From Magnetococcales bacterium (lineage in GTDB: Bacteria > Pseudomonadota > Magnetococcia > Magnetococcales > DC0425bin3), in contig JADGBZ010000007.1 in NCBI GenBank assembly GCA_015231175.1, positions 1,846 to 65,845 of the forward strand: a DNA stretch of 64,000 nt, in the 5' to 3' direction. Shown here one piece after another: positions 7,691 through 63,381 of this stretch. The notes under the pieces are model-generated. The model ran no database searches. It was given only the letters and a program-made list of their open reading frames with translations, and was not told the DNA's origin. Both the position numbers and the translations under genes were made by a program. Numbering within the stretch: position 1 is the first letter of the stretch; each line of letters begins with the position of its first letter.

Positions 7691-8317
7691 ATGAAAAAAT
7701 CCGACGTGATGGCAGTTTTTTCCGCATTTCGGGATGCCAATCCTGAACCGCGTGGGGATTTGCTCTTTCGCAACCCCTTTGAACTCCTGGTTGCCGTGGT
7801 GCTGTCCGCCCAGGCGACCGATCGGGTGGTAAACCAGGTGACGCCGGCCCTTTTTGCGGCGGCGCCCGATCCGCACGCCATGGTGGTTTTGGGGGAGGAG
7901 GGGATTCGGTCTTACATTCACACGGTCGGTTTGTACAACACCAAGGCGAGACATATCCACCTCCTGAGTGGAGAGTTGTTGCGCAGGCATGGGGGAGAGG
8001 TTCCGGACCGGCGTGAAGCCTTGGAGGCCTTGCCGGGGGTGGGACGCAAATCGGCCAATGTCGTGCTCAACGTCGTTTTTGGACAGCCGACCCTGGCGGT
8101 GGATACGCACGTTTTTCGGGTGGCCAACCGGACAGGTCTGGCGGCAGGCAAGACGCCGTTGCAGGTGGAAGAGTTGTTGCTCGCCAGGGTTCCGCCGCCA
8201 TTTTTGTTGCATGCGCACCATTGGTTGATTTTGCATGGCCGGCATGTTTGTCAGGCGCGGCGGCCACGTTGTGAGGGGTGTCTGATTCGGCGTTGGTGCG
8301 CGCTGGGGAAGGAGTGA
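7691..8317 (+). CDS. nth: endonuclease III
   Basis: 208 aa. FELLVAVVLSAQATD, HhH-GPD motif LPGVGRKSANVVL, and C-terminal Fe-S cluster C-x6-C-x2-C-x5-C (CQARRPRCEGCLIRRWC). Confidence 0.95.
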   Translation: MKKSDVMAVFSAFRDANPEPRGDLLFRNPFELLVAVVLSAQATDRVVNQVTPALFAAAPDPHAMVVLGEEGIRSYIHTVGLYNTKARHIHLLSGELLRRHGGEVPDRREALEALPGVGRKSANVVLNVVFGQPTLAVDTHVFRVANRTGLAAGKTPLQVEELLLARVPPPFLLHAHHWLILHGRHVCQARRPRCEGCLIRRWCALGKE

Positions 8318-8445
8318 TCATGGCGGAGCGGGTAGACGATCCATTTCAATAAAAACATCCTTGGATATTTTTTGAAGGGGTGATCGTTGCGGAGCAGGTA
8401 GGAGATCTATTTTTATAAAAACATCCTTAGACATTTTTTTGGTTG
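8314..8445. repeat. 66-bp tandem duplication (2 units, about 80% identical) starting at the nth stop codon
   Basis: 8314-8379 and 8380-8445 align without gaps (15 mismatches by eye). Each unit carries an AT-rich hairpin plus T-run (AAAAACATCC-TT-GGATATTTTTT). Confidence 0.85.
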
Positions 8446-8539
8446 TTGAAAGCAGCAACCGGAACGGGATCACTCCGTTCCTCATCTGGTACCGGGTCAT
8501 GTCGACCCGGTCCGAACCATTCAAATGGGAGAAAAAAAC

Positions 8540-9310
8540 ATGAAAAGTCGTTATCCTGGTTATGGCGCATCCGGTATGGAGCCGGAACAAACTGTGGACG
8601 ATCAGACCAAAACCATGGTAGAAGGTGCGTTGGGAAGGATTGCCAATGAGACAACGGATTATCATCGCTACCTCGCGGCGGAGGTGGCGTCCAGGAGATT
8701 GCGCCAACAGACCGGGTGGAGGGTCAGCCCGGAATTGCTGGTGGCCCACGCTTTTGGTGAACAACAGCATATTGACCAGCTCCAGGAAGATTTGTACGCT
8801 GCCGAACAAAATGGGGAGTGGCGAAGATATGACCGGTTGCAGGACAGAAGGCGGGATGATTCTGTCATCAATCAGAATCTTGGGGGAACCACCCGCGAGG
8901 TGTTCGGGGCAGATCCGGATTTTGTTCGGTCTGACCAGCAGTCAGGTGGGGATGCAGCCGAGGGCAACGGTGAGAAGCCCATGGTTATGGCATGGGGTTG
9001 GTTGCCAAGAGTTATCGGTGCCGCTGCTGCCGGGGCGGCCTGGTACCTGAGAAAGACCCCGAATCATGCCATTGAAGGGGAAGCGTTGAAAGCCGGGAAA
9101 GGTCTTTACGAGGAACTGGAAGATGTCAAGAAAAATCAAGATGATGACGATAGTCTTTTTCTTGGCATGCTGAAAGGACGCCATCCTGGGGATAAGGATG
9201 TTCAGAAGGGGGCTGCCGCCCAACAGGAGCTCGTCGACTGTCATAAAAAAAATCATGGTTCTGATGTCGAGGAATGTCTGAGAACAAGTAAGATATGGAA
9301 CGGAAATTGA
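8540..9310 (+). CDS. hypothetical protein (acidic, one predicted TM helix)
   Basis: ORF track 8525..9310. ATG 8540 has GGGAGA 6 nt upstream. One hydrophobic segment (MVMAWGWLPRVIGAAAAGAAWYL). No recognisable domain. Confidence 0.5.
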   Translation: MKSRYPGYGASGMEPEQTVDDQTKTMVEGALGRIANETTDYHRYLAAEVASRRLRQQTGWRVSPELLVAHAFGEQQHIDQLQEDLYAAEQNGEWRRYDRLQDRRRDDSVINQNLGGTTREVFGADPDFVRSDQQSGGDAAEGNGEKPMVMAWGWLPRVIGAAAAGAAWYLRKTPNHAIEGEALKAGKGLYEELEDVKKNQDDDDSLFLGMLKGRHPGDKDVQKGAAAQQELVDCHKKNHGSDVEECLRTSKIWNGN

Positions 9311-9379
9311 GTGTGTGTTTCAGGTTAACAGAGATGTTTCCTGGATACTTGTGATAATCAGAGGTTTATCCTAAAATTA

Positions 9380-9406
9380 CCCAGGAAGGGCGCAACCCTT
9401 CCTGGG
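9380..9406 (+). terminator. stem-loop (11-bp stem, 5-nt loop) downstream of the hypothetical gene
   Basis: CCCAGGAAGGG-CGCAA-CCCTTCCTGGG, 70 nt after the stop at 9310. No U-tract follows. Confidence 0.4.
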
Positions 9407-9456
9407 CATTCCATCCTTGACTTGCGCTTCTTTTGTCCGAGAGGTGGCTGTTGTTC

Positions 9457-11103
9457 ATGTGTCGAACATTGATGAAAATAATCACAGGATTCATGGTTTT
9501 ATTCATGATGGTGGCGCCTGCCCTGGTTCAGGGACAAGAGCCTGATTCGGTTTATCTGAGAGGAAAGCATGTTCCTTTTGATCAGGCTTTGTTACAGGCG
9601 CATAGAGGAGATGCGGAAGCAAAATACAGTGTAGGTTGGTTTTATATAGATAAAAACGATAAAAAAAATGGTATATATTGGATCAGAAGTGCCGCCATGG
9701 CTGGTTATGTACCTGCCATGGAGGATCTGCCATTTCAGTTGTTGCATTCGATTTATCCCCGCCACGATACTCTTGTGGAGGTTGAATCTGTTGGATGGGC
9801 TCTGAAATCACTTAAGATTAACCCGGATTGCTGGGGTGCCATGGTGGTTATGGCTGGCTATTACCGTTTGGGGTGGGGATTTTCCAGCAACATCAAATTG
9901 GCGAAAGAGTGGGAAGATAAAGCGATACGACTGGGGGGTGCGAAAGCTGCCATTCATTTGGCGTTTTTTAATTGGCCAAAAAATGAGGTGGTATATGATC
10001 CCCATAGGACATTATATTTTCTGAAAAAAGCGTCGGAAGATAACGATTCGTTAGCTCAGGCGCTTCTTGGCCAGTATTATGCGGGCTCTGATTTATTTAA
10101 ATTTAATCCCATTCCACTCAATCCTGACCAATCCCGTTATTGGTTGGAAAAGGCGTTTCAAGCGGGTGAAGGAGGGGGAGCGTTTTGGTTGGGTAAGCTC
10201 TATTATCATGGGAGCGGGGGGTATCCCCGGGATCTGGTCGAGGCCAAGTCCTGGTTTGAGCGTATACCCCGTCTTTATGCAAGAGCAAAATTTCTCTTGG
10301 CAACGCTCTACTGGTCTGGCGTTCCCGGCGCCCCTCCCGATCAGGCAAAAGCCATGGCTTTGTTCCAGCAGGCGGCGGAAGAGAAGAGTGCGCGCGCTCA
10401 GTTTGCCATGGGGCAACTGCATCGTGGGGGATATCTGGGCGGCAAGCCTGATATGACCCAGGCTTATCTCTGGTATCGCAAGGCTGCCAGGAACGCATAT
10501 CCACCAGCAATGACCATGCAGGGTCTCATGAGCCTGAAGGGTGATGGTATTCTGGCCGATCCAAAAGGGGCTGTGTCGCTTTTGCAGGCAGCCGCTGCCG
10601 AAGGAGAGGAAAATGCCCTGTATTGGCTTGGCGTCATGTCCCAGGTTGGCTTGGGTGTTGACAAGAGTTTGTCCCGGGCGCGCACCTGGTTTTTGCGTGG
10701 CGCCGAGGCTGGGGAGGCGCGATCCATGGTCAAACTATCCCTCGACCTGTTTGCGGGCAAAGGGGGGGCGCAGGAGCTTCCTCTTGCCTACCATTGGGCC
10801 AAAAAGGCGGCGCAGAGTGGTTTGCCTCAGGGGCTCTGCTGGGCGGGAACCTTGTTGTATTTTGGTGTTGGCACGCCGCCCGATCCGGAGCAGGCCAGGG
10901 TTTGGTTGCGGCAAGGTTCGGCTGCCGGCATGGAGCCGTGTACGCGCGTTTTGACGGCAGCCTCCCCCAAAACGCCAGGAGACACCGGTATTCGGCCACC
11001 CCTGGTGGAGGCCGTGGCTGCGGATTTATCTAAGGCCATGGATGGGGAGATGGATCACCCCTATCTCCCCATATCGTCCCATTTGGAGGTGTTGCCAAAA
11101 TGA
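9457..11103 (+). CDS. secreted Sel1-like repeat (SLR/TPR-like) protein, paralogue 1
   Basis: ORF track 9433..11103 trimmed to ATG 9457 (GAGGTGG upstream), 548 aa. Signal peptide MKIITGFMVLFMMVAPALVQG. Multiple Sel1 units (A-x-W-x-x-KAA-x-x-G pattern, e.g. AYLWYRKAARNAYPPAM, ARTWFLRGAEAGEARSM). Confidence 0.85.
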   Translation: MCRTLMKIITGFMVLFMMVAPALVQGQEPDSVYLRGKHVPFDQALLQAHRGDAEAKYSVGWFYIDKNDKKNGIYWIRSAAMAGYVPAMEDLPFQLLHSIYPRHDTLVEVESVGWALKSLKINPDCWGAMVVMAGYYRLGWGFSSNIKLAKEWEDKAIRLGGAKAAIHLAFFNWPKNEVVYDPHRTLYFLKKASEDNDSLAQALLGQYYAGSDLFKFNPIPLNPDQSRYWLEKAFQAGEGGGAFWLGKLYYHGSGGYPRDLVEAKSWFERIPRLYARAKFLLATLYWSGVPGAPPDQAKAMALFQQAAEEKSARAQFAMGQLHRGGYLGGKPDMTQAYLWYRKAARNAYPPAMTMQGLMSLKGDGILADPKGAVSLLQAAAAEGEENALYWLGVMSQVGLGVDKSLSRARTWFLRGAEAGEARSMVKLSLDLFAGKGGAQELPLAYHWAKKAAQSGLPQGLCWAGTLLYFGVGTPPDPEQARVWLRQGSAAGMEPCTRVLTAASPKTPGDTGIRPPLVEAVAADLSKAMDGEMDHPYLPISSHLEVLPK

Positions 11104-11124
11104 CCCGAAAGGATGCAAACTTCG
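10107..11124 (+). repeat. 1018-bp segmental duplication, copy 1 (3' two-thirds of SLR gene 1 plus 21 nt past the stop)
   Basis: Aligns without gaps to 11791-12808 (offset 1684 nt). I count 3 mismatches by eye (10266, 11031, 11072). Confidence 0.9.
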
Positions 11125-11140
11125 AGGTGGGCTGTTGTTT

Positions 11141-12787
11141 ATGTATCGAACATTGATGAAAGTAATCACAGGATTTATGGTTTTGTTTATGATGGTGGCG
11201 CCCGCCTTGGTCCAGGGGAGAGAACCTGATTTTGTCATTCTTGGCGAGAAACATGTTCCTTTTGATCAGGCTTTATTGTTGGCGCACGGGGGAGATGTGG
11301 AGGCCCAATATCGTATTAGTCTTCTATATTCTACAAATAAAAACAATAACAAAATAAGTTTATATTGGATGAGAAGGGCTGCTATGGCTGGATATGTGCC
11401 TGCTATGGAATATCTTGTGTTTTATTTGTTCAGCACGATCTATCCCAATCATGATTTTCTCTTGGAGGTGGAGGTTATAGGTTGGGCACAGAAAACCCTG
11501 GCCGTGAAAGCGGATAGTTGGGAGATCATGATGGACATGGCAGTCTTTCATCATCATGGATGGGGTGTGTCAAGAAACGAAAGGTTGGCCAAAATGTGGG
11601 AAGAGTCGGCGTTACGGGTTGGCGGTGCTCAAGCTGCGTTCTTTCTGTCAACCTCCCATGCCCGGGATGGTGTCCTGGATCACGATCCTGATAAACTTCT
11701 GCATTTACTGACCTATGCGGCAGAAGGTAATTACCTTGTTGCACAGGTGTTTCTCGGAAAATATTTTGCAGGGAAGTTATTCAAGAAGGATCCCATTCCA
11801 CTCAATCCTGACCAATCCCGTTATTGGTTGGAAAAGGCGTTTCAAGCGGGTGAAGGAGGGGGAGCGTTTTGGTTGGGTAAGCTCTATTATCATGGGAGCG
11901 GGGGGTATCCCCGGGATCTGGTCGAGGCCAAGTCCTGGTTTGAGCGTATGCCCCGTCTTTATGCAAGAGCAAAATTTCTCTTGGCAACGCTCTACTGGTC
12001 TGGCGTTCCCGGCGCCCCTCCCGATCAGGCAAAAGCCATGGCTTTGTTCCAGCAGGCGGCGGAAGAGAAGAGTGCGCGCGCTCAGTTTGCCATGGGGCAA
12101 CTGCATCGTGGGGGATATCTGGGCGGCAAGCCTGATATGACCCAGGCTTATCTCTGGTATCGCAAGGCTGCCAGGAACGCATATCCACCAGCAATGACCA
12201 TGCAGGGTCTCATGAGCCTGAAGGGTGATGGTATTCTGGCCGATCCAAAAGGGGCTGTGTCGCTTTTGCAGGCAGCCGCTGCCGAAGGAGAGGAAAATGC
12301 CCTGTATTGGCTTGGCGTCATGTCCCAGGTTGGCTTGGGTGTTGACAAGAGTTTGTCCCGGGCGCGCACCTGGTTTTTGCGTGGCGCCGAGGCTGGGGAG
12401 GCGCGATCCATGGTCAAACTATCCCTCGACCTGTTTGCGGGCAAAGGGGGGGCGCAGGAGCTTCCTCTTGCCTACCATTGGGCCAAAAAGGCGGCGCAGA
12501 GTGGTTTGCCTCAGGGGCTCTGCTGGGCGGGAACCTTGTTGTATTTTGGTGTTGGCACGCCGCCCGATCCGGAGCAGGCCAGGGTTTGGTTGCGGCAAGG
12601 TTCGGCTGCCGGCATGGAGCCGTGTACGCGCGTTTTGACGGCAGCCTCCCCCAAAACGCCAGGAGACACCGGTATTCGGCCACCCCTGGTGGAGGCCGTG
12701 GCTGCGGATTTATCCAAGGCCATGGATGGGGAGATGGATCACCCCTATCTCCCCACATCGTCCCATTTGGAGGTGTTGCCAAAATGA
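11141..12787 (+). CDS. secreted Sel1-like repeat (SLR/TPR-like) protein, paralogue 2
   Basis: ORF track 11042..12787 trimmed to ATG 11141 (GAGGTGG upstream), also 548 aa. Signal peptide MKVITGFMVLFMMVAPALVQG. C-terminal 331 aa differ from paralogue 1 at 2 residues. Confidence 0.85.
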   Translation: MYRTLMKVITGFMVLFMMVAPALVQGREPDFVILGEKHVPFDQALLLAHGGDVEAQYRISLLYSTNKNNNKISLYWMRRAAMAGYVPAMEYLVFYLFSTIYPNHDFLLEVEVIGWAQKTLAVKADSWEIMMDMAVFHHHGWGVSRNERLAKMWEESALRVGGAQAAFFLSTSHARDGVLDHDPDKLLHLLTYAAEGNYLVAQVFLGKYFAGKLFKKDPIPLNPDQSRYWLEKAFQAGEGGGAFWLGKLYYHGSGGYPRDLVEAKSWFERMPRLYARAKFLLATLYWSGVPGAPPDQAKAMALFQQAAEEKSARAQFAMGQLHRGGYLGGKPDMTQAYLWYRKAARNAYPPAMTMQGLMSLKGDGILADPKGAVSLLQAAAAEGEENALYWLGVMSQVGLGVDKSLSRARTWFLRGAEAGEARSMVKLSLDLFAGKGGAQELPLAYHWAKKAAQSGLPQGLCWAGTLLYFGVGTPPDPEQARVWLRQGSAAGMEPCTRVLTAASPKTPGDTGIRPPLVEAVAADLSKAMDGEMDHPYLPTSSHLEVLPK

Positions 12788-12808
12788 CCCGAAAGGATGC
12801 AAACTTCG
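11791..12808 (+). repeat. 1018-bp segmental duplication, copy 2
   Basis: See copy 1 (10107-11124). Confidence 0.9.
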
Positions 12809-12887
12809 GTGATGAATGGTTACATCAAAATGGCCATGCAGGTCAAAGGCGGGCACCACCAGACAACCTGCCTGGCCCGGGAAAACG

Positions 12888-13871: not shown

Positions 13872-14102
13872 ATTTGCTTCCTTGGCAAAAAGGTCGTAAG
13901 ATGGGCGCCGTCGTGAGAAGTGACCGGGGGACCGGTGGTCTCTGGGACCGAAGGCGCCGGGCGTTTGAAATTTTGTCGGACATTTTTTTAGTCATGGGAA
14001 TCAATAACATGCATTTTTGTCTCACCGTCCTGGAGAACCCATGGTATCTCAAGTGGGCGGCGGAGACGCCAAGCAGATTGCACTCGGGAGCAGAATACTT
14101 CA
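13872..14102 (+). promoter_or_regulatory. divergent rluC/rne promoter region and probable rne 5' leader
   Basis: 231-nt non-coding spacer upstream of rne. In enterobacteria rne carries a long autoregulatory 5' UTR. No specific motif verified here. Confidence 0.3.
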
Positions 14103-16475: not shown

Positions 16476-16516
16476 ACCCAATTCGTCACTATTCAGTACC
16501 CTTTTAAGAAAAGCCT

Positions 16517-16604
16517 GGATATGAAAGTTTTTGTCAGGGCTTTGCCCCGAACCGTGCCAGGACTCCGTCCTGGATCTGTCCGGTCGCCAACCCCCTGGAT
16601 CCCG
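16517..16604 (-). repeat. REP-like ~90-bp element, copy 2 (inverted, diverged core)
   Basis: The reverse complement shares both termini with copies 1 and 3. The core differs but still forms a hairpin (CCAGGA-CGGAG-TCCTGG). Lies between the rne stop and the cheC-like start. Confidence 0.65.
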
Positions 16605-17392: not shown

Positions 17393-17440
17393 TCTTCCGT
17401 GAATTTTGAACGCATGTGCTGACAACACAAGAACTGTGCC

Positions 17441-20302
17441 ATGGATACTGACCTGGATCTTGATATTTTTCGGCAAATTCTTGAAAAGAGCTCCTATGGT
17501 ATCATTGTTCTTGATCAGGTCTCCAAAGTTGTATTCTGGAATCGCTGGATGGAAAAAGCGTCACGCATTCCCGCCGCTGGTGTTGTCGGGCAGGTATTTA
17601 CAGACGTTTTTCCAGATTTGCTCGGTACCCGTATTGCGCGTGGCATTGAAAACGCCCTCTCCCAGGGATTGCCCACCACCCTCTCCCACAAGTTGACCCA
17701 TCGGCCCTTTCCTCTCTTTCCTCCTGCTGCCGGGCGGGAAGCGGACGAACGCATGAGCCAACACGTTCTGATCAGTGGCATACGCGCCCGGGACCGGACT
17801 TTTTATTGTACCATCCAGATCCAGGACATTACCGACACCGTCTCCCGTGAACACATATTGCGTGAACAGACCGGGGAGTTGCGTTTGGCCAAGGAGATGG
17901 CACAGAGTGCCAGCCAAGCAAAGGGGGACTTTCTGGCCAATATGAGTCATGAGATTCGCACCCCGATGAACGCCATCATTGGCATGACGCACCTGGCCAT
18001 GCAAACCGATCTGAATCCCAGGCAACTCGATTACCTGACCAAGATTCAATACTCCTCCCAGTCCCTGCTTGGCATCATCAACGATATTCTCGATTTTTCC
18101 AAAATCGAGGCGGGCAAACTGAAGATGGAGTCCGTCGCTTTCCACCTGGATGAGGTTTTGCACAACGTCTCCAACCTGATGACGATCAAAACCGATGAAC
18201 AGGGGCTGGAATTTTGTTTCCACGTTGCCAAGGATCTTCCTCTGGGTCTGGTGGGCGATCCGCTGCGCCTGGGGCAGGTTTTGGTCAATTTGACCAGCAA
18301 TGCCGTCAAGTTTACCCGTGCGGGAGAGATCATTCTGTCCGTCGAATTGGAGGCGTTGACCGAGGAGACGGTGACGATTCATTTCAGTGTCAAGGACAGC
18401 GGCATTGGCATGACTCCAGAACAGATCGCCGGGTTGTTCCGACCCTTTACCCAGGCTGACAGCTCAACGACCCGAAAATTTGGCGGTACGGGTCTTGGTC
18501 TTTCCATCTGCCGGCGCTTGGTTCAGATGATGGGAGGAAACATCTGGGTCGAGAGTCAATCTGGGCTTGGCAGCACCTTCCATTTCAACGCAACGTTTGG
18601 ACGCGCCAACAAGGATCGCCGCCGGTTTCGTTTGCCCGACGATCGATATGTGGGTTTGCGCGTTTTATTGGCGGATGACAATGCTGCGTCGCGCGAAATT
18701 CTGCAACATGCCTTGGAGTCTTTTTCCTTCAAGGTTACCCCTGTGGCTTCTGGTGCCGAGGCCATTGCCGAGTTGGAAAAAGCCCGACATGCCCGGCCCT
18801 TTGACATGGTGTTCGTGGATTGGAAAATGCCGGAGATGGATGGCATTCGCACCACGGAGGAGATCTCCAGACTTTTTCCCACCCAACGCATGCCCAAGGT
18901 GATCATGGTGACCGCCTACGGTCGGGAGGAGGTGCTGCATGCTGCCAAAAGTGTCCATCTCAATTCAATTTTGATCAAACCCGTCAGCCTCTCCCTGTTG
19001 TTCGACACCATTCTGGCCGCTTTGGGGGAAAATGAGCGTGCCATCACCAACCCGCTCCAGACGAGCAGAAATGAGTTGGTACCCCTCCAGTTGTCACCCC
19101 TCCAGCAGAAGATGCACCCCTTGCAGGGCGCCAAAATATTGCTGGTTGAGGATAACGAGATCAATCAGCAGGTGGCGGGGGAACTTCTCGACATGGTGGG
19201 GTTGCAGGTGCGTATCGCCTCCAACGGGCGGCAAAGCCTCATCGCCCTGGCAGAGGAGTCGTTTGATGCCGTGCTGATGGATATTCAAATGCCGGAGATG
19301 GATGGTTATGAAGCCACCCGCAAAATTCGGGAAAATCCAGCCTGGACAACTCTGCCCATCATCGCCATGACGGCCAATGCCCTGGCCGGGGATCGGGAAA
19401 AATGCCTGGCCGTGGGTATGAATGAACATATCGCCAAACCCATTGATCCCCGTGTTCTTTACAGTACCCTTACCCGTTGGATCAAGCCTCCGTTGCCAAC
19501 CGTTGAGCAACCGGTGGTGGCGCAGGCGCCGCGACCTGAACGAACCCAACCGGAACCTGTTGATCACCTGGTATCGCAAGCGACTGAATATAAAGGCATG
19601 GAACCGGATGTCACCCTTCAAGCAACTGAATATAAAAATATGGAGCCGGATGTCACTCTTTTGCCGGAATCCATTCCCGGTTTTGATCTTTCTGTTGGGC
19701 TGAAATATGTGGGTGGCAACAAGAAACTTTACCGGAAACTATTGCTGGATTTTCGGCGCACCCAATGGGATGCAGCCGAGAAGGTTCATCAGGGCATGAC
19801 ATCGGGAGAGATCCATGAGACGCAGCGCCGGGTCCACACCATCAAAGGTATTGCCGGCACACTGGGGGCTTTGGAGTTGCAGGATGTGGCAAAACATTTG
19901 GAAGTTTCCCTGAAGAACCATGACCGCGAACAATCCGCATCCTTGCTCAAGCCTTTCCAAAGTTCCTTGCAAGGTGTCATGCACGCTCTTGCCGTTTTGG
20001 ACTCTCAGGAAACTCCCGTCGATCCGCCCCATGTTGTGAAAGGATCCAAGGAAGGCCATCATGATGGGCCTCTTGATCGAAATGCTTTGGAGTCTGTCAC
20101 AACCCTTTGTCAACAATTGGCCGCATGGCTCGATGAGGGTGACGTTCGCGCCAAAAGCACTCTGGAACAACTCAACAAATGCCTTCCCCCGGCCCATAGG
20201 CAGGTGGTCGGCCTGGTGGCTGAAAAAATGGGCGATTATGATTTTGACGGTGCCAGGGACGCCTTGGTGCAATGGGCCTCATTCATGAAAATATCCCTCT
20301 GA
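17441..20302 (+). CDS. hybrid sensor histidine kinase (PAS-HisKA-HATPase-REC-REC-HPt)
   Basis: 953 aa. H-box [15 protein letters not shown]. ATPase boxes DSGIGM and GGTGLGLSI. Two receivers ([21 protein letters not shown]). C-terminal HPt [11 protein letters not shown]. Confidence 0.9.
19577..19660 (+). repeat. in-frame 42-bp tandem duplication (2 x 14 aa) in the REC2-HPt linker of the hybrid kinase
   Basis: [14 protein letters not shown] / [14 protein letters not shown]. 6 nt differences, three of them synonymous. Confidence 0.85.
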
Positions 20303-53609: not shown

Positions 53610-55790
53610 TTGGATGCGGATCTGCCTGACACCTCTTCACCGTCACACCTGGTTTTTTTTGTCAGCGTTCCCTCGGGTTTGGAATCCCTGTTGGCGGGGG
53701 AGCTGCGCCAATTAGGACTCGCCCGTCTGCGACCGGGCCAAAGCGGCGTCTCCTTTTCAGGAACCCTGGAGGATGCGCTGCGGGTCGTTCTCTGGTCGCG
53801 GGTGGGCAGCCGGGTTACCCTTCCCCTGCAAAAGGTGCCGGCTGCCACTCCAGAAGCCTTGTACGCCGGTGTGCATGCCATCCCCTGGGAAGAGCACATC
53901 CCGCCACAAGGAACGTTGGATATTGAGTTCAAAGGGGTCAACGACACCATCCGACACACCCGTTTCGGTGCGCAAAAGGTCAAGGATGCGGTGGTGGACC
54001 GGTTGCGGGAGAAGCGGGGAAGCCGTCCAACGGTCACCCATGCCCACCCGGATGTCCACATCCATGTTCGGTTGCGGGAGGAGAGCGCCCAGGTCGCCCT
54101 GGATCTTGCCGGGGGTTCACTGCACCGGCGCGGCTATCGCGTGGACTCGACGGTGGCCCCGTTGCGGGAGAATCTTGCCGCAGCCATCCTGATGCTCTGC
54201 AATTGGCCCGAGCTGGCCCAACAGGGGGCGGGCTTGTTCGACCCCTTGTGTGGCTCCGGGACGTTTCTCATCGAGGGGGCCTGGATGGCCGGGGATGTGG
54301 CTCCCGGTCTTCTGCGGCCCGCTTCTGGTGGGCGAGGGTGGCTCGGCTGGGATGCACCACTCTGGCGCCGTCTGCTCTCGGAGGCCGAGGCGCGGCGGGA
54401 AGTGGGCATGCAGCGGTTGCCCCCCTTGTTGGGTGGCGACCTCTCCGCCACGGCCCTGCAGGCTACGCGGCGCAATGCCATGCAGGCTGGCGTGGTCGAG
54501 TCGATCCTTTTGCAGCAAAAGTCCGTTGCGCAACTGCGCCCTGGCTTCGGCTCCGGTTTGTTGGTGACCAACCCGCCCTACGGGCAACGACTGGGGCACG
54601 GCGGGGAGTGGACCACCCTCTACCGGGATCTGGGACATCTGTTGCAATCCGGTTGCCGCAACTGGCCAGCCGGAGTGTTGGCCATGGATAACCTTCTGCC
54701 CCAAGCGCTTGGCCTGAAACCAGAACGGTCGCATCCGCTGCGCAATGGCCCGCTCCATTGCAACCTCCTGATTTTTTCCCCATCCCGGTCGGCGCCCAAG
54801 GAGGCTCCCACCCCTGATCCGGCAGCGACACCAGACAGCCCCATCTCTCCCGGGCAGGAGATGTTTGCCAACCGGTTGCGCAAAAACATGCGCGAAATGG
54901 GAAAATGGGCGCGCCGGGAGGGGGTCCACTGCTACCGGGTCTATGATGCGGATATGCCCGAATACGCCTTGGCCATCGACCTCTATGATGGCTATGTCCA
55001 CGCCCAGGAGTATCATGCCCCGGTTTCCGTCGAACCGGAGAAAGCCCGAATGCGGTTGCAGGAAGCGTTGGCAGCCTTGCCCGGCGTTTTTGGTCTCCAG
55101 CCGGAAAAAATTTTTTTCAAGGTTCGGCGGCGGCAAAAAGGGGACGAACAGTACCAAAAATTGGAGAGCAAGGGGATCCGTTTTCCGGTGCGGGAGGGTC
55201 CATTCCGCTTTCTGGTCAATTTGAGCGATTACCTGGATGTTGGTCTCTTCCTGGACCACCGGCGTATCCGGGCCATGCTGGGGGAGATGGCTTCGGGACG
55301 CAGGTTTCTGAATCTGTTCGGCTATACAGGAACGGCAACGGTGTACGCAGCAGCCGGAGGCGCTGTTTCCACCACGACTGTAGACATGTCGGCCACCTAT
55401 CTCCATTGGGCCCGGGCCAACCTGGATCTGAACGGCCTGATGTCGGCCCGACACCAGTTTGTCGAAGGGGATTGCCTGGCGTGGATCGATCAACACCCGA
55501 GACGTTACGACCTGATCTTTCTGGATCCCCCAACCTTTTCCAACTCGAAACGGATGTCTGGCGTGTTTGATGTCCAGCGGGATCACGTGGATCTGGTGAT
55601 CCGGACCGCCCGTTTGCTCGCTGCGGGGGGTGTGATGATTTTCTCAAACAATTTCAAGAAATTTCGTCCACAATGGACCGATCTTCCCCCTTATCTTGAG
55701 GTGGTGGATCTGACGACTAAAACCATTCCGGAAGATTTTCGCCGGCATGCAAACGTTCACCATTGTTGGCGCATGCAGATGCGGGCTTGA
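53610..55790 (+). CDS. rlmL: bifunctional 23S rRNA (guanine-N2/N7) methyltransferase RlmKL
   Basis: 726 aa, TTG start. THUMP-type N-terminus (GLESLLAGELRQLG, VLWSRVGSRV). First methyltransferase NPPYG motif, second C-terminal SAM methyltransferase domain. Confidence 0.85.
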   Translation: MDADLPDTSSPSHLVFFVSVPSGLESLLAGELRQLGLARLRPGQSGVSFSGTLEDALRVVLWSRVGSRVTLPLQKVPAATPEALYAGVHAIPWEEHIPPQGTLDIEFKGVNDTIRHTRFGAQKVKDAVVDRLREKRGSRPTVTHAHPDVHIHVRLREESAQVALDLAGGSLHRRGYRVDSTVAPLRENLAAAILMLCNWPELAQQGAGLFDPLCGSGTFLIEGAWMAGDVAPGLLRPASGGRGWLGWDAPLWRRLLSEAEARREVGMQRLPPLLGGDLSATALQATRRNAMQAGVVESILLQQKSVAQLRPGFGSGLLVTNPPYGQRLGHGGEWTTLYRDLGHLLQSGCRNWPAGVLAMDNLLPQALGLKPERSHPLRNGPLHCNLLIFSPSRSAPKEAPTPDPAATPDSPISPGQEMFANRLRKNMREMGKWARREGVHCYRVYDADMPEYALAIDLYDGYVHAQEYHAPVSVEPEKARMRLQEALAALPGVFGLQPEKIFFKVRRRQKGDEQYQKLESKGIRFPVREGPFRFLVNLSDYLDVGLFLDHRRIRAMLGEMASGRRFLNLFGYTGTATVYAAAGGAVSTTTVDMSATYLHWARANLDLNGLMSARHQFVEGDCLAWIDQHPRRYDLIFLDPPTFSNSKRMSGVFDVQRDHVDLVIRTARLLAAGGVMIFSNNFKKFRPQWTDLPPYLEVVDLTTKTIPEDFRRHANVHHCWRMQMRA

Positions 55791-55908
55791 CGGCGCGGGT
55801 GTTTTGCCGATCCCATGGAAATGATTGCGCTTTTCCCGGAAGAAGCGGGCCTGACGGCGCGGGTGTTTTGCCGCTTCCCTAGAAATGATTGCGCTTTTCC
55901 CGGAGGTG
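55781..55908. repeat. 64-bp tandem duplication (2 units, about 87% identical) spanning the rlmL and gloB stop codons
   Basis: 55781-55844 and 55845-55908 align without gaps (8 mismatches). Unit 1 contains the rlmL stop (55788-55790). Unit 2 contains the gloB stop (55879-55881). Confidence 0.85.
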
Positions 55909-56646: not shown

Positions 56647-56687
56647 GGCTACTCTCAGGTCAACAAGCAACGGGTCTCCTTCATATC

Positions 56688-57452: not shown

Positions 57453-58335
57453 TGCTTTCATGATCAACCGGTTCATGGATGAACTTTTGGTGGAACACGG
57501 GCTCTCGGCCAACACCCTGGAGGCCTATCGCCAGGATTTGGAGGGTTTATCCGCATTTTTAGCCCTCCGTGGCGGTGATCTGTTGCGGGCCGATCGCGAG
57601 ACGCTTCTCTGCTATCTCAGCGCATTGACTGCCCGGGATATGGCGGCCAGTTCCGTGGCCCGCAAGCAGTCGGCGTTTCGGCGCTTTTATCGGCATCTGG
57701 TTTTGCGCGACGAGCGGGAGGATGATCCCACCCATCTGTTGGACTCCCCCCATCTGCAACGCCATTTGCCGCAAATCCTGAATGAAGAGGAGGTCGAATC
57801 CCTGCTGAACGCCCCGGATCGCAGCACCGAGTTGGGTCTGCGGGATGCGGCCATGCTGGAACTGCTCTATGCCACGGGTCTGCGCGTATCCGAGTTGATC
57901 TTTCTGGAAACGGACAGCATCGAACCGGGTTTCGGTTTTGTGCGGGTGGTGGGGAAGGGAGACAAGGAACGCCTGGTGCCGGTCGGAGAGGCGGCCCTGG
58001 ATATTGTGGAAAAGTATCGGCGCTCGGCGCGCCTGCTCCTGTTGGCGGGAAGCCCGACCCGCGCCCTGTTCGTGACAGCCCGGGGCGGTCCCATGACCCG
58101 GCAAAATTTTTGGTATGTCATCCGCCGTCATGCCGTCATGGCAGGCATCACCAAACCTTTGTCACCTCATCTGCTGCGCCACTCGTTTGCCTCACATCTG
58201 CTCAACCATGGCGCCGACCTGCGGGCCGTGCAGATGATGCTTGGCCATGCCGATATCTCGACCACGGAAATCTATACCCACCTGGCCCAGGATCGCCTGA
58301 AACAGATTCATCGGCAACTGCATCCAAGGGCCTGA
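57445..58335 (+). CDS. xerD: site-specific tyrosine recombinase XerD
   Basis: ORF track 57319..58335 trimmed to ATG 57445 (296 aa). Collinear with E. coli XerD, including LYATGLRVSEL, HLLRHSFASHLL, LGHADISTTEIYTH and the LHPRA terminus. Confidence 0.9.
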   Translation: MTDAFMINRFMDELLVEHGLSANTLEAYRQDLEGLSAFLALRGGDLLRADRETLLCYLSALTARDMAASSVARKQSAFRRFYRHLVLRDEREDDPTHLLDSPHLQRHLPQILNEEEVESLLNAPDRSTELGLRDAAMLELLYATGLRVSELIFLETDSIEPGFGFVRVVGKGDKERLVPVGEAALDIVEKYRRSARLLLLAGSPTRALFVTARGGPMTRQNFWYVIRRHAVMAGITKPLSPHLLRHSFASHLLNHGADLRAVQMMLGHADISTTEIYTHLAQDRLKQIHRQLHPRA

Positions 58336-58341
58336 TCGCAC

Positions 58342-59244
58342 GTGAAATTCATCGACCCAAGAATCGACTTTGCCTTCAAGAGGATCTTCGGCAGCGAAGA
58401 TGCGAAGGATATTTTGATCAGTTTTCTTGAGAGCCTCCTGGAACTTGAGGGTGAACGCCGCATTGTTGAACTGACGATCCTGGACCCCTTTTTGGCGCCG
58501 AAGGTCCGTGAACTGAAATACTCGGTACTGGATGTCAAATGCCGGGATCATCGTGGCGTTTCCTATATTGTGGAGATGCAGATTCAGAAGACGGCTGCTT
58601 TCCTGAAACGGATCCAGTACAACGCCGCCAAGGCCTACGTTCACCAGATTGAAAAAGGCGAAGATTATCCCAAGCTCAACCAGGTGATTGCCATCACCAT
58701 CACCGATTTTCCCCTGTTCGATGGTTTCGACCACTGCGTCTCGCGTCATGAGACCCGAGAGGCGGTCACCGGGCAGACTTTTCTTCAGGAAATCCTTCAC
58801 TGTTTTATCGAGTTGCCAAAATTCAACAAATCCATCGGGGAACTGACCGACGTATTGGACCAGTGGATCTGGTTCATCAGGTTTGCCGGTTCCGTGGAGG
58901 CAATTCCGGATCGGATACGAGTTGAGCCAATCCGCCACGCCTTTGCAAGGGCCACCGTGGCCAATATGACAGCAGAGGAGTATGAACTTTACGACAAAGC
59001 CGGCATTGCCATCGCGGATGCCCAGGGAGCGGTTCAGTTGGCACGCCAGGAAGGGCGTCAGGAAGGGCGTCAGGAAGGGCTTCGCGAAGGTGAAAGACGC
59101 ACTCTGTATCGACTGCTTGAGAAGCGGTTTGGCTCGGTTCCGGAGTGGGTGCATGCCAGACTTGCCCAGGCTGATCTTGCAGCCCTGGGGAGGTGGACAG
59201 AGAACGTCCTGGAGGCCAAGGTGATTGACGAAGTTTTTTTGTAG
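58342..59244 (+). CDS. Rpn/YhgA-like PD-(D/E)XK recombination-promoting nuclease (putative transposase family)
   Basis: 300 aa, GTG start. Signature N-terminus MKFIDPRIDFAFKRIFG, nuclease core LDVKC...IVEMQIQK, C-terminal QEGRQEGRQEGLREGE repeat. Confidence 0.8.
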   Translation: MKFIDPRIDFAFKRIFGSEDAKDILISFLESLLELEGERRIVELTILDPFLAPKVRELKYSVLDVKCRDHRGVSYIVEMQIQKTAAFLKRIQYNAAKAYVHQIEKGEDYPKLNQVIAITITDFPLFDGFDHCVSRHETREAVTGQTFLQEILHCFIELPKFNKSIGELTDVLDQWIWFIRFAGSVEAIPDRIRVEPIRHAFARATVANMTAEEYELYDKAGIAIADAQGAVQLARQEGRQEGRQEGLREGERRTLYRLLEKRFGSVPEWVHARLAQADLAALGRWTENVLEAKVIDEVFL

Positions 59245-59366
59245 GTTACATTGGTTTGACAGGGTCAATGGTACCAATTTTTTTTTGCTTTCTGTTTCCT
59301 TTTCAGCCTGGATTCAGCTTGTCTCTCCAGACTCCTCTCCAACGTAAACTTTATTGGAGAAGGAAA

Positions 59367-59996
59367 ATGCGCGAAAAAGAACAAACCGTTTCCGTGTGGG
59401 ATCCTCTTGTACGTATCTGCCATTGGGGTATGGTGTTTGGTGTGAGTTTGGCTTTTCTTGCGGAGGACGATTTCATGTTCCTCCATGTGCTGGCTGGGCA
59501 TTTGATACTTGGACTGGTGGTTTTCCGTCTTGTCTGGGGGGTTGTTGGCCCACGGCATGCCCGATTTTACACATTCGTCCGTGGACCAAGGCGGATCCTG
59601 TCCTGCGTGCGATCCATTCTGAAGGGTAAGCCGGAGCACTATGTTGGCCATAATCCGGCAGGCGGAGGTATGGTGGTTGCGATTCTTCTGGTTCTCCTGT
59701 TGACGGTTTTCCTGGGAATGGCTGCCTACGACACCAAGGAATTTCATGGCATCCTGTGGCCCATGACTGCCGGGTTGGGCATGGGTGTGGTCAAACTTCT
59801 TGGATTCCTGCATGAACTCTTCGCCAATTTGTTGCTGATTCTGGTGGTCCTGCATGTGACGGGGGTGTTGGTGGCGACGTTGCAGCATCGTGAAAACCTG
59901 GTCAAAAGCATGTTCACTGGCCGTAAACGCGCTCCTCTTACCCTGGGCATTGTAATCCTTGGCATGACTCTGATCTCGCGAAGTATGCCACTCTGA
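59367..59996 (+). CDS. cytochrome b561-type (Ni/Fe-hydrogenase b-type cytochrome subunit family) membrane protein
   Basis: ORF track 59256..59996 trimmed to ATG 59367 (GGAGAAGGA upstream), 209 aa. Four TM helices with conserved His (RICHWG, HVLAGH, HNPAGG, LHELF...LHV). Confidence 0.75.
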   Translation: MREKEQTVSVWDPLVRICHWGMVFGVSLAFLAEDDFMFLHVLAGHLILGLVVFRLVWGVVGPRHARFYTFVRGPRRILSCVRSILKGKPEHYVGHNPAGGGMVVAILLVLLLTVFLGMAAYDTKEFHGILWPMTAGLGMGVVKLLGFLHELFANLLLILVVLHVTGVLVATLQHRENLVKSMFTGRKRAPLTLGIVILGMTLISRSMPL

Positions 59997-60043
59997 CGCC
60001 ATCAAGGGTTCCTACAACGAACATGCGGTGAGCATTCCGGGCC

Positions 60044-60385
60044 ATGGCCGCTGGGAAGATTGACCTGCGATCGATGTTTTTCAGGGGATGGAGGCTTCCT
60101 TTCCTTTTGCCGGTGCTCTGCATGTTGCATCCTGTCATCGGTCAGACCGACGACGATCACGAAGATGTCAGACGCCTGGTGCAAGCAGGGATCATCCTTC
60201 CCCTGGAAAAAATTTTAAAAGCCAGTCAAAACTTTCAACGGGGACGTCTGTTGGAGGTCAAGTTGAAGCGTCGTCACGGTGGGTATATCTACGAACTGGA
60301 GTTGGTGACCCAACAAGGTATTGTCTGGGAATTGGAGTTTGATGCAACCAACGGTGTCCTCCTTGAACAGGAAAAGGAGAAGTAA
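60044..60385 (+). CDS. PepSY domain protein (periplasmic)
   Basis: 113 aa. Signal-like N-terminus. GRLLEVKLKRRHGGYIYELELVTQQGIVWELEFDATNG fits the PepSY pattern. Confidence 0.7.
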   Translation: MAAGKIDLRSMFFRGWRLPFLLPVLCMLHPVIGQTDDDHEDVRRLVQAGIILPLEKILKASQNFQRGRLLEVKLKRRHGGYIYELELVTQQGIVWELEFDATNGVLLEQEKEK

Positions 60386-60388
60386 CGT

Positions 60389-61054
60389 TTGCGTTTTTTA
60401 CTGGTAGAAGATGATGGCACCCTCGCTGCCACCATCAAAAAAGATTTAAACCATGCCGGGTATGCCGTGGACATCGTACATGATGGTGTGGAAGCCGAAT
60501 TCATGGGGGAGTCCGAACCCTATGATCTGGTGATTCTGGATCTGGGTTTGCCAGGCAGGCATGGTTTGGAGGTTTTAAAAAATTGGCGTCAGCATGGCCA
60601 TATCATGCCGGTATTGATTCTGACCGCCTGGGACGCCTGGCACGAACGGGTGGATGGCTTCAAGGCCGGGGCAGACGATTATCTCGGTAAGCCATTTCAC
60701 ATTCAGGAGCTTGTTGCCCGTATCAACGCCCTTTTGCGTCGCAGCCATACGACCACCAAGGGAACGTTGACCTTGGCGGGTATCACCTTGAACGAAGAAA
60801 CCCAGGAGGTCCATCTGCCATCGGGAGAAACGAAGTCTCTGACAGGAACCGAGTTTCGTCTGCTCCGTTATTTCATGTTTCATGCCGATGAAGTTCTCTC
60901 AAAAACCAGATTGACCGAACATATCTACGAATACGATGCCGACAAGGACAGTAATGTGATCGAGGTGTACGTCAAACGACTGCGCCGACTTGTTGGACAG
61001 GAACGCATTGAGACCCGCCGTGGTCAGGGCTATGTTTTTCGGGCGGCGCCATGA
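60389..61054 (+). CDS. OmpR-family response regulator
   Basis: 221 aa, TTG start. Receiver (LLVEDD, VILDLGLPG, YLGKPF) plus winged-helix output (LTGTEFRLLRYF, RGQGYVF). Confidence 0.9.
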   Translation: MRFLLVEDDGTLAATIKKDLNHAGYAVDIVHDGVEAEFMGESEPYDLVILDLGLPGRHGLEVLKNWRQHGHIMPVLILTAWDAWHERVDGFKAGADDYLGKPFHIQELVARINALLRRSHTTTKGTLTLAGITLNEETQEVHLPSGETKSLTGTEFRLLRYFMFHADEVLSKTRLTEHIYEYDADKDSNVIEVYVKRLRRLVGQERIETRRGQGYVFRAAP

Positions 61055-62385
61055 ACCCTTCCTTGCAAAAGCGGCTGACTTGGCAGTTGGCCCTGCTGTT
61101 GGTCGTTGCCATGGCCATCCAGTGGGGTGTTGTCGAATGGGTTCTGGACCGGATCATTTACAATCATGTGACCTCCCGGCTTGCGCATGATGCCCATACC
61201 ATTCTGGCCCAGACCCGTGTTCATCCTGGCCATGACACAGTGCTTGTCCAGGCAGACCCCATCTATCAGCAGCCATGGTCTGGACACTATTACGCCCTCA
61301 AGGTGGGAGGGATCCTTTTACGCTCCCGCTCTCTATGGGACAACACCTTGCCTCTCCCTGAAGTAGCTGTTGGCAGCGAGATTTTATCCAATCTGGTTGG
61401 TCCTCGTCAGCAACCGTTGCTGGTTCTGACCCGGAGCTTTGTCAAACTCGGTTCAGTCGTCACGATCAGTGTGGCCGAAGATATGACCAGCATTCACCAA
61501 GGGATTGCTCTTTTGCAATTTTGGCACGCCATGCTCTCTCTTTTGGCCATCGGTGTGCTGTTGATTCTGCAACGTTGGACGCTTCGGCGTGGTTTGCAGC
61601 CATTGAACCGTGCCTGCATGGAGATCCAACGTCTGGAACGCGGTGAGGTGGAGATGCTGCATACGGTTTCCGTTCCTGTGGAAATCCTTCCATTCATTCT
61701 TGAAATCAACCGTTTGGTTGCAACGCTTCTACGGAGGTTGCAACGCGCCCGGCATGCCACGAGCAATCTGGCGCATGCCATCAAGACCCCGTTGACCATC
61801 CTCCTGCAACTTGGAAGCAATCCATGCTTTGCGGTGCAAACCGATTTGCAGGAGACCCTCCGAAGACAGGTTGAAGCCATTCGCCAGTTGACGGATCGGG
61901 AATTGAAGCGGGTTCGCTCAGCTGGTTCTGGCACCCCCACACGCAACGTTGATATTCAGGAAGAGTTGGCAGCACTGGTTGCCGTCCTCAAACTGGCGCA
62001 CCAATCCAAAGAGGTGATTGTCTCCTTGGAGGTTCCCACAGGTCTTGTGCTTCCCATGGACCGGGAGGATTTGCTGGAACTTGCTGGTAACCTGCTGGAC
62101 AATGCCTGCAAATGGGCCAGGAGCAGGGTCGATTGTCGCGTCGCCAGCGATGCCGGAGTGTTCCACCTGACAGTCGAAGATGATGGTCCTGGCTGCCCGG
62201 ATGACCAATTACAACACATTCCGGAACGCGGAGTCCGCACGGACACGACCAAACCAGGTTTTGGCATGGGTCTGGATATCGTTTGCGATATCGTCGAGGA
62301 TTATGACGGGCAGCTGACCCTGGGAAAATCAAAACATCTCAGCGGATTTTCAGCCCAAGTCAAGTTACGATTGGCAACTCCATAG
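61051..62385 (+). CDS. sensor histidine kinase (cognate of the OmpR-family regulator)
   Basis: 444 aa, 4-nt overlap with the regulator gene. Two TM segments. H-box SNLAHAIKTPLT. ATPase motifs NLLDNACKW, DDGPG, GFGMGLDIV. Confidence 0.9.
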   Translation: MNPSLQKRLTWQLALLLVVAMAIQWGVVEWVLDRIIYNHVTSRLAHDAHTILAQTRVHPGHDTVLVQADPIYQQPWSGHYYALKVGGILLRSRSLWDNTLPLPEVAVGSEILSNLVGPRQQPLLVLTRSFVKLGSVVTISVAEDMTSIHQGIALLQFWHAMLSLLAIGVLLILQRWTLRRGLQPLNRACMEIQRLERGEVEMLHTVSVPVEILPFILEINRLVATLLRRLQRARHATSNLAHAIKTPLTILLQLGSNPCFAVQTDLQETLRRQVEAIRQLTDRELKRVRSAGSGTPTRNVDIQEELAALVAVLKLAHQSKEVIVSLEVPTGLVLPMDREDLLELAGNLLDNACKWARSRVDCRVASDAGVFHLTVEDDGPGCPDDQLQHIPERGVRTDTTKPGFGMGLDIVCDIVEDYDGQLTLGKSKHLSGFSAQVKLRLATP

Positions 62386-62427
62386 CGAATTTTCAGCCCA
62401 AGTCAAGTGACGATTGGCAACTCCATT
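62342..62427. repeat. 43-bp tandem duplication (2 units, 3 mismatches) of the 3' end of the kinase gene
   Basis: 62342-62384 and 62385-62427. The junction falls inside the TAG stop codon (62383-62385). Confidence 0.9.
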
Positions 62428-62599
62428 CTGTATTCGTACCCATGGATGCGCCCGCGAATGAAAATGTGGTTGAGACAATCGAACCTGATTGCGGTGGAAA
62501 CAAATGGATGTTATGGATAAACCATCGGGCGAGGGGATCTTGTCGTGCTGCGTCGTGACAAGTGGGTTCCCCCACGGGTGGGTGATCGTTGCGTAAGGG

Positions 62600-63265
62600 A
62601 TGTGCATGGGCGAAAGTTGGCAGTCGGGTCGTCGTGTTTTTGGCGGTATCGTTTTGATTTTATTGTTTCTTTGCCCGACGCTCGCCAGGGCAGAGGAGGA
62701 TCGTGCGCCGCTGGAGCAGTTGCAGGCCTTCCTTGACCGGTTGAAAAGCATCGATGCCGACTTCACCCAGGTGGTTTCCGACCCTGCCAATGGAAAAAAA
62801 ACCGAATACAAGGGCCGGTTTACCGCGCTTCGACCCAACCTGTTCCGCTGGGATTACCAGACCCCCTATGTCCAGCTGATTGTCTCGGATGGCGAATGGA
62901 TCTGGCACTATGAACCGGAGCTTCAACAGGCGACCCGGGTCTCGGTCAAACAGATGGAAAAAACCCCGGCTGGTTTTTTGATTGCCAGCAGGCGGGTCGA
63001 GGAGACCTTCGATTGGAAGGCCGTCACGGATCCGGAATGGAAGACGCCGACTGTCACCCTGCGTCCGCGCCAAGCTGACAGCAACTTCCAGGAGATCGCC
63101 GTCACCCTGGATCCAGACGGGGAGCATATCCGCAACATGGTCGTGGTTGACAACCTGGGCAACCGTTCCCGATTTACTTTTCATGATATGCGCGCCAGCC
63201 GGTCCCTGGATCGGCAAAGTTTTCGTTTCGCACCACCGACAGGCGTGGATGTGGTTACCGAGTAG
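62600..63265 (+). CDS. lolA: outer-membrane lipoprotein carrier protein LolA
   Basis: 221 aa (alternative ATG 62606). Signal peptide. LQAFLDRLKSIDADFTQ, RPNLFRWDY, WIWHYEPELQQ are typical LolA blocks. Confidence 0.85.
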   Translation: MCMGESWQSGRRVFGGIVLILLFLCPTLARAEEDRAPLEQLQAFLDRLKSIDADFTQVVSDPANGKKTEYKGRFTALRPNLFRWDYQTPYVQLIVSDGEWIWHYEPELQQATRVSVKQMEKTPAGFLIASRRVEETFDWKAVTDPEWKTPTVTLRPRQADSNFQEIAVTLDPDGEHIRNMVVVDNLGNRSRFTFHDMRASRSLDRQSFRFAPPTGVDVVTE

Positions 63266-63381
63266 AAGAAGAACGTTTGATGCCATCGGATGGGGTTGCC
63301 GGGTAGAGGAAGATCGTTTGATGCCATCGGATGGGGTCACTGGGTAGAGGGAGATCGTTTTATGCCATCGTTCGATATTGT
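63259..63381 (+). repeat. 41-bp tandem repeat x3 that triplicates the yajQ ribosome-binding site and start codon
   Basis: Units at 63259, 63300 and 63341. Each carries GTAGAGGAAG-like SD plus ATGCCATCG. Units 1 and 2 encode 8-codon mini-ORFs (MPSDGVAG*, MPSDGVTG*). Unit 3 holds the real start. Confidence 0.9.

Follow-up and report, generated by a model that had tools for sequence, protein, structure and literature searches.

The window analysed here is a stretch of 64 kb (64,000 nucleotides) from a Magnetococcales bacterium (GenBank assembly GCA_015231175.1, contig JADGBZ010000007.1, positions 1,846 to 65,845 of the forward strand), in which short head-to-tail duplications of DNA lie across the ends of several genes. 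A search with Tandem Repeats Finder and a repeat self-comparison yielded exactly five arrays with a period of at least 19 bp, and the self-comparison returned the same gap-free copies with 0 % indels. Four of these arrays contain a stop codon. They comprise two 66-bp units at the end of nth (8308-8439, 83 % identity), two 64-bp units between the convergent genes rlmKL and gloB (55777-55904, 91 %), two 43-bp units at the end of a PhoQ-like sensor kinase gene (62341-62426, 95 %) and three 41-bp units between lolA and yajQ (63247-63369, 80-88 %). The fifth array, two 42-bp units with 86 % identity, is located inside the gene of a BarA/TorS-like hybrid kinase (19577-19660). All of these gene names are supported by NCBIfam. 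The four gene-boundary loci with two or three gap-free repeats of 41-66 bp, as well as the in-frame duplication in the hybrid kinase, had already been described in a first-pass annotation and were confirmed. The same annotation gave unit identities of 80-93 %, of which the spread stands while the actual range is 80-95 %, and its view that the duplications differ in age is supported. It also let each first unit begin within a few codons of a stop. This holds for nth, rlmKL and lolA (7, 11 and 16 nt upstream, respectively) but not for the kinase, where the distance is 42 nt (14 codons). An ungapped self-comparison of the window with periods of 24-150 revealed no older, more diverged arrays beyond the five, and low thresholds gave codon-periodic noise only.

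The five arrays are real and no product of the assembly, because their copies are 5-20 % diverged, the window contains no Ns and arrays recur in an independent assembly. The latter is the metagenome-assembled genome (MAG) GCA_015232135.1, also annotated as Magnetococcales bacterium and the only other assembly of the organism. Its contig JADGAG010000050 encodes a YajQ and a LolA identical to those of the window, matches window positions 56898-62477 with 99.96 % identity and holds both the 43-bp array (97.7 % identity between the copies) and the 41-bp array. A second contig (L089) matches positions 7873-18317 with 99.85 % identity, and its 66-bp array is identical base for base. Thus the nth, kinase and lolA/yajQ arrays, for which the first-pass annotation had considered an assembly artefact, recur with equal copy numbers. 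The independence of the two assemblies is apparent from a G/T difference at 62409 inside the 43-bp array, a T6/T7 homopolymer at 59240 and the sites that distinguish two paralogous Sel1-like repeat (SLR) genes. Un-merged overlaps or mis-joined reads come to mind since the source is itself a MAG and a true scaffolding artefact was met in a related genome (L087). However, the probability of this explanation is negligible, as each array leaves both adjoining genes intact and a second assembly differing by 0.04-0.15 % has the same three arrays.

The structure of the arrays is most informative at the lolA/yajQ junction. The 41-bp unit consists of the last 16 nt and the TAG of lolA, a 14-nt spacer with the Shine-Dalgarno (SD) sequence, and ATGCCATC of yajQ. 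Copy 1 (63247..63287, plus strand) contains the true end of lolA (..GVDVVTE, TAG 63263-63265) followed by a decayed SD and an ATG. In copy 2 (63288..63328, plus strand) a relic of the lolA end with its TAG, an SD-like stretch and a further ATG are found. Copy 3 (63329..63369, plus strand) carries another lolA-end relic, the SD of ancestral type AGGGAGATCG and the true start of yajQ (ATG 63362, MPSFDIVS..). The ATGs of copies 1 and 2 open mini-ORFs (small open reading frames) of eight codons, each with an SD and each terminating at the TAG of the next copy, an automatic consequence of the copying of a stop-SD-start junction. For comparison, contigs of other Magnetococcales MAGs were reached via LolA, RlmKL and Nth homologues of 68-78 % identity. 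A single unit, lolA TAG followed by the 14 nt AGGGAGATCGGATC and the ATG of yajQ, exists in Magnetococcus sp. DMHC-1 (L085/L086), and the junction of L083 is also single-copy; the comparison with related genomes proposed in the first-pass annotation has therefore revealed the state before duplication at this locus. Compared to the relatives, the ancestral lolA end is kept in copy 1 and the ancestral SD AGGGAGATCG in copy 3, whereas the SD of copy 1 has decayed to AAGAAGAACG. The lolA relics of copies 2 and 3 have two derived changes in common, so the array must have grown in two successive steps. In L082 (75 % LolA identity) the junction was hit independently by a duplication of 52 bp (2.1 copies) with different end points, its unit starting inside the lolA stop and including the SD and the first 39 nt of yajQ. 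A scan with a conserved yajQ-start word for more loci of the clade gave no match. As a separate observation, yajQ of L083/L084 (10677-11170) starts with GTG and is disrupted around codon 87 by a +1 frameshift, as seen in two separate assemblies of one relative, and the lolA/yajQ junction of this frameshifted gene bears duplications in two sister lineages. The gene could be a pseudogene, a case of recoding or a shared sequencing error.

The single-copy ancestral state was seen for lolA/yajQ only, since the other three boundary junctions of the window are not syntenic in the relatives. At rlmKL/gloB the 64-bp unit runs from the final 11 nt of rlmKL and its TGA across a 24-nt spacer into the convergent gloB, of which it takes in the final 23 nt and the stop. 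Copy 1 (55777..55840, plus strand) provides the true end of rlmKL (..HHCWRMQMRA, TGA 55788-55790), beyond which lie the 24-nt spacer and a remnant of the gloB end that has decayed and lost its stop (CTAG to CATG). Copy 2 (55841..55904, minus strand) provides the true end of gloB (..LREKRNHF, stop complementary to 55879-55881) besides a relic of the rlmKL end. Both ends are the usual ones: rlmKL terminates in copy 1 at the normal place relative to its homologues (..HHCWKIELRKS*, ..HQCWRITQV*), and the GloB C-terminus encoded by copy 2 matches those of the three relatives L082, L083 and L085 (..LREQRNHF*, ..LRERRNHF*). Downstream of rlmKL the relatives have a 312-aa gene and a FimV-like one. A tyrosine-recombinase gene, 1.5 kb away from the array, is kept beside gloB in all relatives and for this reason looks like a housekeeping gene of the XerC/D type.

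The nth array begins 7 nt ahead of the TGA of nth (8315-8317), and its copy 1 (8308..8373, plus strand) extends through this stop and 56 nt of 3' flank. This flank contains an SD-like GAAGGAG, a 10-codon mini-ORF and an A/T-rich imperfect palindrome. Copy 2 (8374..8439, plus strand) is non-coding, and the ATG of its mini-ORF has decayed to GTT. The Nth homologues of the relatives are 4-7 aa longer than Nth of the window, and each relative has a different gene downstream. In the sensor kinase the 43-bp unit lies within the last codons of the gene (array 62341..62426, plus strand), and the stop TAG at 62383-62385 was created at the junction of the two copies. The difference at 62409 (G in the window, T in the MAG) falls into copy 2, and the MAG has TTA in both copies where copy 2 of the window has TGA. 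From this it seems that the reading frame of the ancestor probably continued for 11 more codons, up to a TGA, and that a frameshifting duplication probably trimmed an 11-aa tail beyond the HATPase_c domain. This domain ends at residue 441 of 444; the duplicated segment appears to be a dispensable C-terminal tail. The kinase gene closes a cluster of a hypothetical gene, cytochrome b, PepSY, an OmpR-type regulator and the kinase itself (58342-62385), located between an xerC-like gene and lolA. This two-component cluster is absent between xerC and lolA in L082, where only a 166-aa gene on the other strand is found. The in-frame array of the hybrid kinase (19577..19660, plus strand) duplicates 14 residues and spans residues 713-740, which form part of the linker between the REC (566-676) and Hpt (767-842) domains.

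The position of the arrays was compared with a uniform placement of five arrays on a curated, hand-made map of 51 genes (91 % coding, using gene calls of the MAG). The probability that at least four of five contain a stop codon is 1.9e-4, and in this sense the anchoring at gene boundaries is beyond chance, as had been suspected. A second regularity concerns the reading frame. All five intragenic arrays from inside and outside the clade have periods that are multiples of three (42, 93, 39, 42 and 45), in comparison to one of ten extragenic arrays (66, 64, 43, 41, 52, 56, 70, 29, 34 and 34; Fisher P=0.002). In unrelated bacteria both arrays with other periods (L040 and L044) contain a stop codon, while those in multiples of three are intragenic. 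The rule is thus general and not lineage-specific.

The frequency of the arrays is a different matter. As a baseline outside the clade served 1.21 Mb around 79 unrelated bacterial yajQ loci obtained from a YajQ contig scan (mostly distant taxa, best identity 64 %), which contained 9 verified arrays with periods of 29-150, or 7.4 per Mb. Among the relatives of the clade, 171 kb of non-redundant sequence yielded 7 arrays, or 41 per Mb (P=0.0018 against the baseline). The window itself, which was selected post hoc, reaches 78 per Mb, about ten times the baseline (P=4e-4 against the non-clade loci, P=0.21 against the clade). The high density is a property of the lineage because the relatives share it, and in this sub-clade of the Magnetococcales such duplications are generated or kept at about 5-10 times the rate of typical bacteria. 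What is specific to the lineage is thus the density and not the association with stops, which also occurs in unrelated bacteria. Two candidates were dropped from the counts. One of them (p61 in L087, 9431-9541) consists of identical 51-nt copies flanking nine Ns; it is an artefact of scaffolding that only looks like a tandem duplication and shows that repeats in MAGs must be counted with care. The other (p36 in L088) is an 18-bp coding repeat beside an N gap.

Consensus scans found no terminator-like sites (a G+C-rich stem-loop followed by a T run) inside any array, and the DNA of all units folds no better than shuffled controls (z -0.45 to +1.41). The proposed slippage at terminators, convergent structures or hairpins is not supported by these two results. 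Comparisons of the units with each other by blastn and with the window and all 92 loci gave no matches beyond the own arrays, which argues against a dispersed family of the MIRU, REP (repetitive extragenic palindromic) or MITE (miniature inverted-repeat transposable element) kind. No Rfam family reached its gathering score anywhere in the window, and a known structured RNA was dismissed accordingly. Microhomology at the junctions amounts to 0-1 nt, including the youngest array, and no terminal inverted repeats or remnants of inverted repeats were found at the arrays.

We regard the arrays as ordinary local duplications of the minisatellite type that have been filtered by selection, and their anchoring at gene boundaries is probably the outcome of purifying selection acting on a duplication process that is blind to position. 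Head-to-tail duplications of 40-70 bp would arise de novo, each copied from its own site, by a process that is probably not aimed at gene ends. Inside a gene, a duplication that is not a multiple of three would shift the frame and be lost, and one that keeps the frame would survive only in a tolerant linker. A duplication spanning a gene end should be harmless, since the first copy still terminates the upstream gene and the last one still serves the downstream or convergent gene; it would be invisible to selection because both neighbouring genes stay intact. If confined to a dispensable C-terminal tail it would be tolerated as well. Afterwards the unused parts of the copies would decay, and this decay may also shield the array from deletion by slippage between the copies. 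In favour of this explanation, every boundary unit is a copy of its local junction, and GloB, RlmKL and LolA end as in the relatives, via copies 2, 1 and 1, respectively. The reading-frame rule and its general validity, the single unit at lolA/yajQ in relatives, the decay pattern of the three 41-bp copies, the linker position of the in-frame array, the density excess and the independent duplication in L082 also count in its favour. The duplications themselves may have originated independently of microhomology, for example by repair of staggered nicks or of a topoisomerase-type lesion. The lack of hairpins, shared sequence and microhomology fits a repeat-independent origin like that of the duplications in topA R168C mutators or after paired nicks.

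Several points weigh against this reading. Even if placements falling entirely within a gene are set aside, a stop is included in only 25-34 % of the rest and about 45 % are intergenic throughout; four of four thus still corresponds to P of about 0.007. Over all genomes 8/11 extragenic arrays touch a stop; two of the others are located within 50 nt downstream of one (L085, 56 bp x2; L002, about 140 bp x2) and a single one in a divergent promoter region (L088, 70 bp x2). This excess requires either a stronger constraint on promoter-side DNA, which is a plausible conjecture, or a mutational preference for 3' ends. Spacers on the promoter side are more constrained than 3' flanks, and hence REP and insertion sequence (IS) elements accumulate downstream of genes. 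Such a constraint may plausibly account for the excess over the naive expectation. At 171 kb the clade sample is small, and it was collected around orthologues of the loci flagged beforehand; the window was chosen because of these arrays and the gene map was made by hand. Finally, a copy divergence of 5-20 % means long persistence, which is unexpected if tandem copies were deleted as fast as in Escherichia coli. It suggests that either deletion of copies is slow in this lineage or only survivors stabilised by early mismatches are seen.

The stop excess also speaks for a lineage-specific mutational hotspot at the 3' ends of genes, linked to the termination of transcription or translation or to local DNA topology (e.g. 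topoisomerase cleavage or staggered nicks at the ends of transcripts), with selection in a minor role. This alternative is unlikely. The recurrent use of one junction fits it, as lolA/yajQ was hit twice in the lineage of the window and once independently in L082, but at the observed density of the clade such a recurrence is expected about 13 % of the time. Likewise, three of the four boundary arrays of the window coincide with synteny breakpoints, yet synteny in these relatives breaks every few genes anyway. The junctions without microhomology resemble duplications of the topA type (PMC6954433). On the other hand, arrays of similar size are also found within genes, where they invariably keep the frame, and one lies in a divergent promoter region; the same stop association in unrelated bacteria with ordinary densities speaks against lineage specificity. 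The units also contain neither terminators nor hairpins, and the lolA/yajQ junction is internal to an operon and has no terminator. It is also rather improbable that duplications in the sub-clade stem from a distinctive process which needs no microhomology (repair of nicks staggered by 30-90 bp, altered topoisomerase or end-joining activity), prefers gene ends and repeatedly remodels junctions, stops and translational coupling; the stop bias would then be mutational in part.

The idea that gene ends were remodelled by selection leads to an adaptive explanation, in which the duplications tune expression (decoy SDs and starts, mini-ORFs altering the coupling of yajQ and lolA) or reshape C-termini. 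All three lolA/yajQ copies retain the TAG, an SD-like stretch and ATGCCATC, giving two mini-ORFs, and yajQ has an altered junction in two lineages and a frameshift in a third. Moreover, Nth is shorter than in the relatives by 4-7 aa, the kinase has probably lost 11 aa and the diverged copies have persisted. At most two of the four ends (Nth and the kinase) are altered, however, whereas those of LolA, GloB and RlmKL are unchanged. The decay of unused parts (the SD in copy 1, the ATG in nth copy 2, the gloB stop relic in copy 1), the absence of a motif common to the units and the functionally unrelated genes also make adaptation a doubtful explanation of low probability. Footprints of an excising element, as the first-pass annotation had suggested, would be target-site duplications left after excision or remaining copies of attachment (att) sites at gene 3' ends. 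Integrative elements often target such ends and bring a copy of the end along, a tyrosine-recombinase gene lies close to the rlmKL/gloB array and three arrays are at synteny breakpoints. But the copies are directly adjacent with no DNA between them, and their lengths range from 41 to 66 bp in the window and from 29 to 93 bp in the clade, while target duplications of known elements measure 2-15 bp and are fixed per element. The lolA/yajQ array has a third copy and grew in two steps, arrays of comparable size (39-93 bp) also lie in frame inside genes, neither terminal inverted repeats nor a sequence common to the loci are present and no occupied site was seen in L082-L092. As the copies are contiguous and the recombinase is XerC/D-like and conserved next to gloB in all relatives, att-site repeats flanking an integrative island were rejected, and a mobile element is very improbable in general.

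Among known systems the arrays come closest to bacterial minisatellites, or loci with a variable number of tandem repeats (VNTR), which are local tandem duplications with units of 10-100 bp. They share with them gap-free head-to-tail copies, units of 40-70 bp, 2-5 copies and a location mostly intergenic or in frame inside genes, and the three-copy lolA/yajQ array shows stepwise growth. In contrast, the copies are old and 5-20 % diverged instead of near-identical, the density is unusually high for a bacterial genome and copy-number polymorphism is not seen in the two agreeing assemblies of the organism. MIRUs (mycobacterial interspersed repetitive units) are described as units of 40-100 bp in tandem between the genes of operons, with small ORFs overlapping or abutting the flanking stop and start. 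They form a single dispersed family, with some 40-50 related copies per genome, and show traces of transposition such as direct repeats and imperfect inverted ends (Supply et al. 1997, as summarised in PMC3184786). Only the lolA/yajQ array reproduces the layout of small ORFs abutting the flanking genes. In contrast to the dispersed homologous family that defines MIRUs, the units here are mutually unrelated and each is a copy of a local gene junction. With REP and MITE elements they share the preference for 3' flanks, where selection tolerates extra DNA, but they have no palindromic hairpin structure and no dispersed copies. In topA R168C mutators of E. coli, tandem duplications arise de novo and independently of existing repeats (PMC6954433), and repair of paired single-strand nicks is cited there as another source of tandem duplications (Schiml et al. 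2016). Both resemble the present arrays in the head-to-tail arrangement without prior repeats or microhomology, and both represent a shift in mutation spectrum that could be lineage-wide. However, the E. coli events measure 2-19 bp and the units here 29-93 bp, so that the analogy is a mechanistic one only. Our literature search turned up neither an account of Magnetococcales genomes as rich in tandem repeats nor a paper that treats duplications anchored at stop codons as a class of their own.

The arrays illustrate clearly how selection influences the sites at which structural mutations are observed, since an accumulation at gene junctions can mimic a targeted process. Gene callers will misplace starts and stops at such sites, as illustrated here by a false start that yields a YajQ of 185 aa. 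For uncultured magnetotactic cocci the arrays are candidate VNTR markers for strain typing. The excess of arrays in the clade may reflect a shift in the spectrum of mutation or repair in Magnetococcales. Should the residual stop bias turn out to be mutational, it would suggest a new link between termination sites and duplication.

A duplication on a larger scale, likewise reported in the first-pass annotation and confirmed, is represented by the two tandem SLR (Sel1-like) paralogues at 9697..12787 (genes 9697-11103 and 11405-12787, plus strand) with an offset of 1684 nt. About 1 kb of them is some 99 % identical and the 5' parts some 81 %; the matches are 9446-9626/11130-11310 (81 %) and 10093-10392/11777-12076 (98 %). 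This is a gene-scale paralogue pair and a matter separate from the short arrays. Of the 16 mismatches between MAG and window, 15 lie in the SLR genes; 13 are concentrated at 10272-10286 and 11950-11970, and six positions have a counterpart at +1684 nt. The pattern suggests gene conversion or an assembly chimera between the copies. The T7 homopolymer of the window (59234-59240) is T6 in the MAG, so that the gene starting at 58342 encodes 300 aa in the window (stop 59244) and 334 aa in the MAG. The difference may be either a sequencing error or homopolymer phase variation.

Other repeats were seen within genes. The window contains a perfect in-frame 12-bp repeat of 2.8 copies, CAGGAAGGGCGT, in a hypothetical gene (59047-59080) and a GAT/GAC (Asp) run in an RNase E/G gene (15783-15835). 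In DMHC-1 an in-frame 39-bp array of 4.6 copies (L085 13215-13395, also L086 4247-4427) lies inside an mgsA/rarA-like AAA gene, the product of which has 496/482 aa compared to 438-440 aa in relatives. The unit lengths of the five window arrays (41, 42, 43, 64 and 66) fall into two groups of about 42 and 65 bp. Since those of the relatives (29, 39, 52, 56, 70 and 93) show no such grouping, it may be due to chance. A gene on the minus strand (51367-53094) codes for a 575-aa protein which is 83-85 % identical among three Magnetococcales genomes. It is always divergent from a gapR-like gene and rlmKL, and no Pfam family is recorded for its orthologues in L087 and L088. A scan of JGI metagenomes with an alignment of this clade-specific protein gave no relatives. 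In DMHC-1 the 575-aa gene adjoins a region (L088 1183-7547) with genes for a Retron-type reverse transcriptase together with an HTH (helix-turn-helix) protein, GmrSD_N and AAA_15/AAA_21, which probably represents an anti-phage defence island and is absent from the window.

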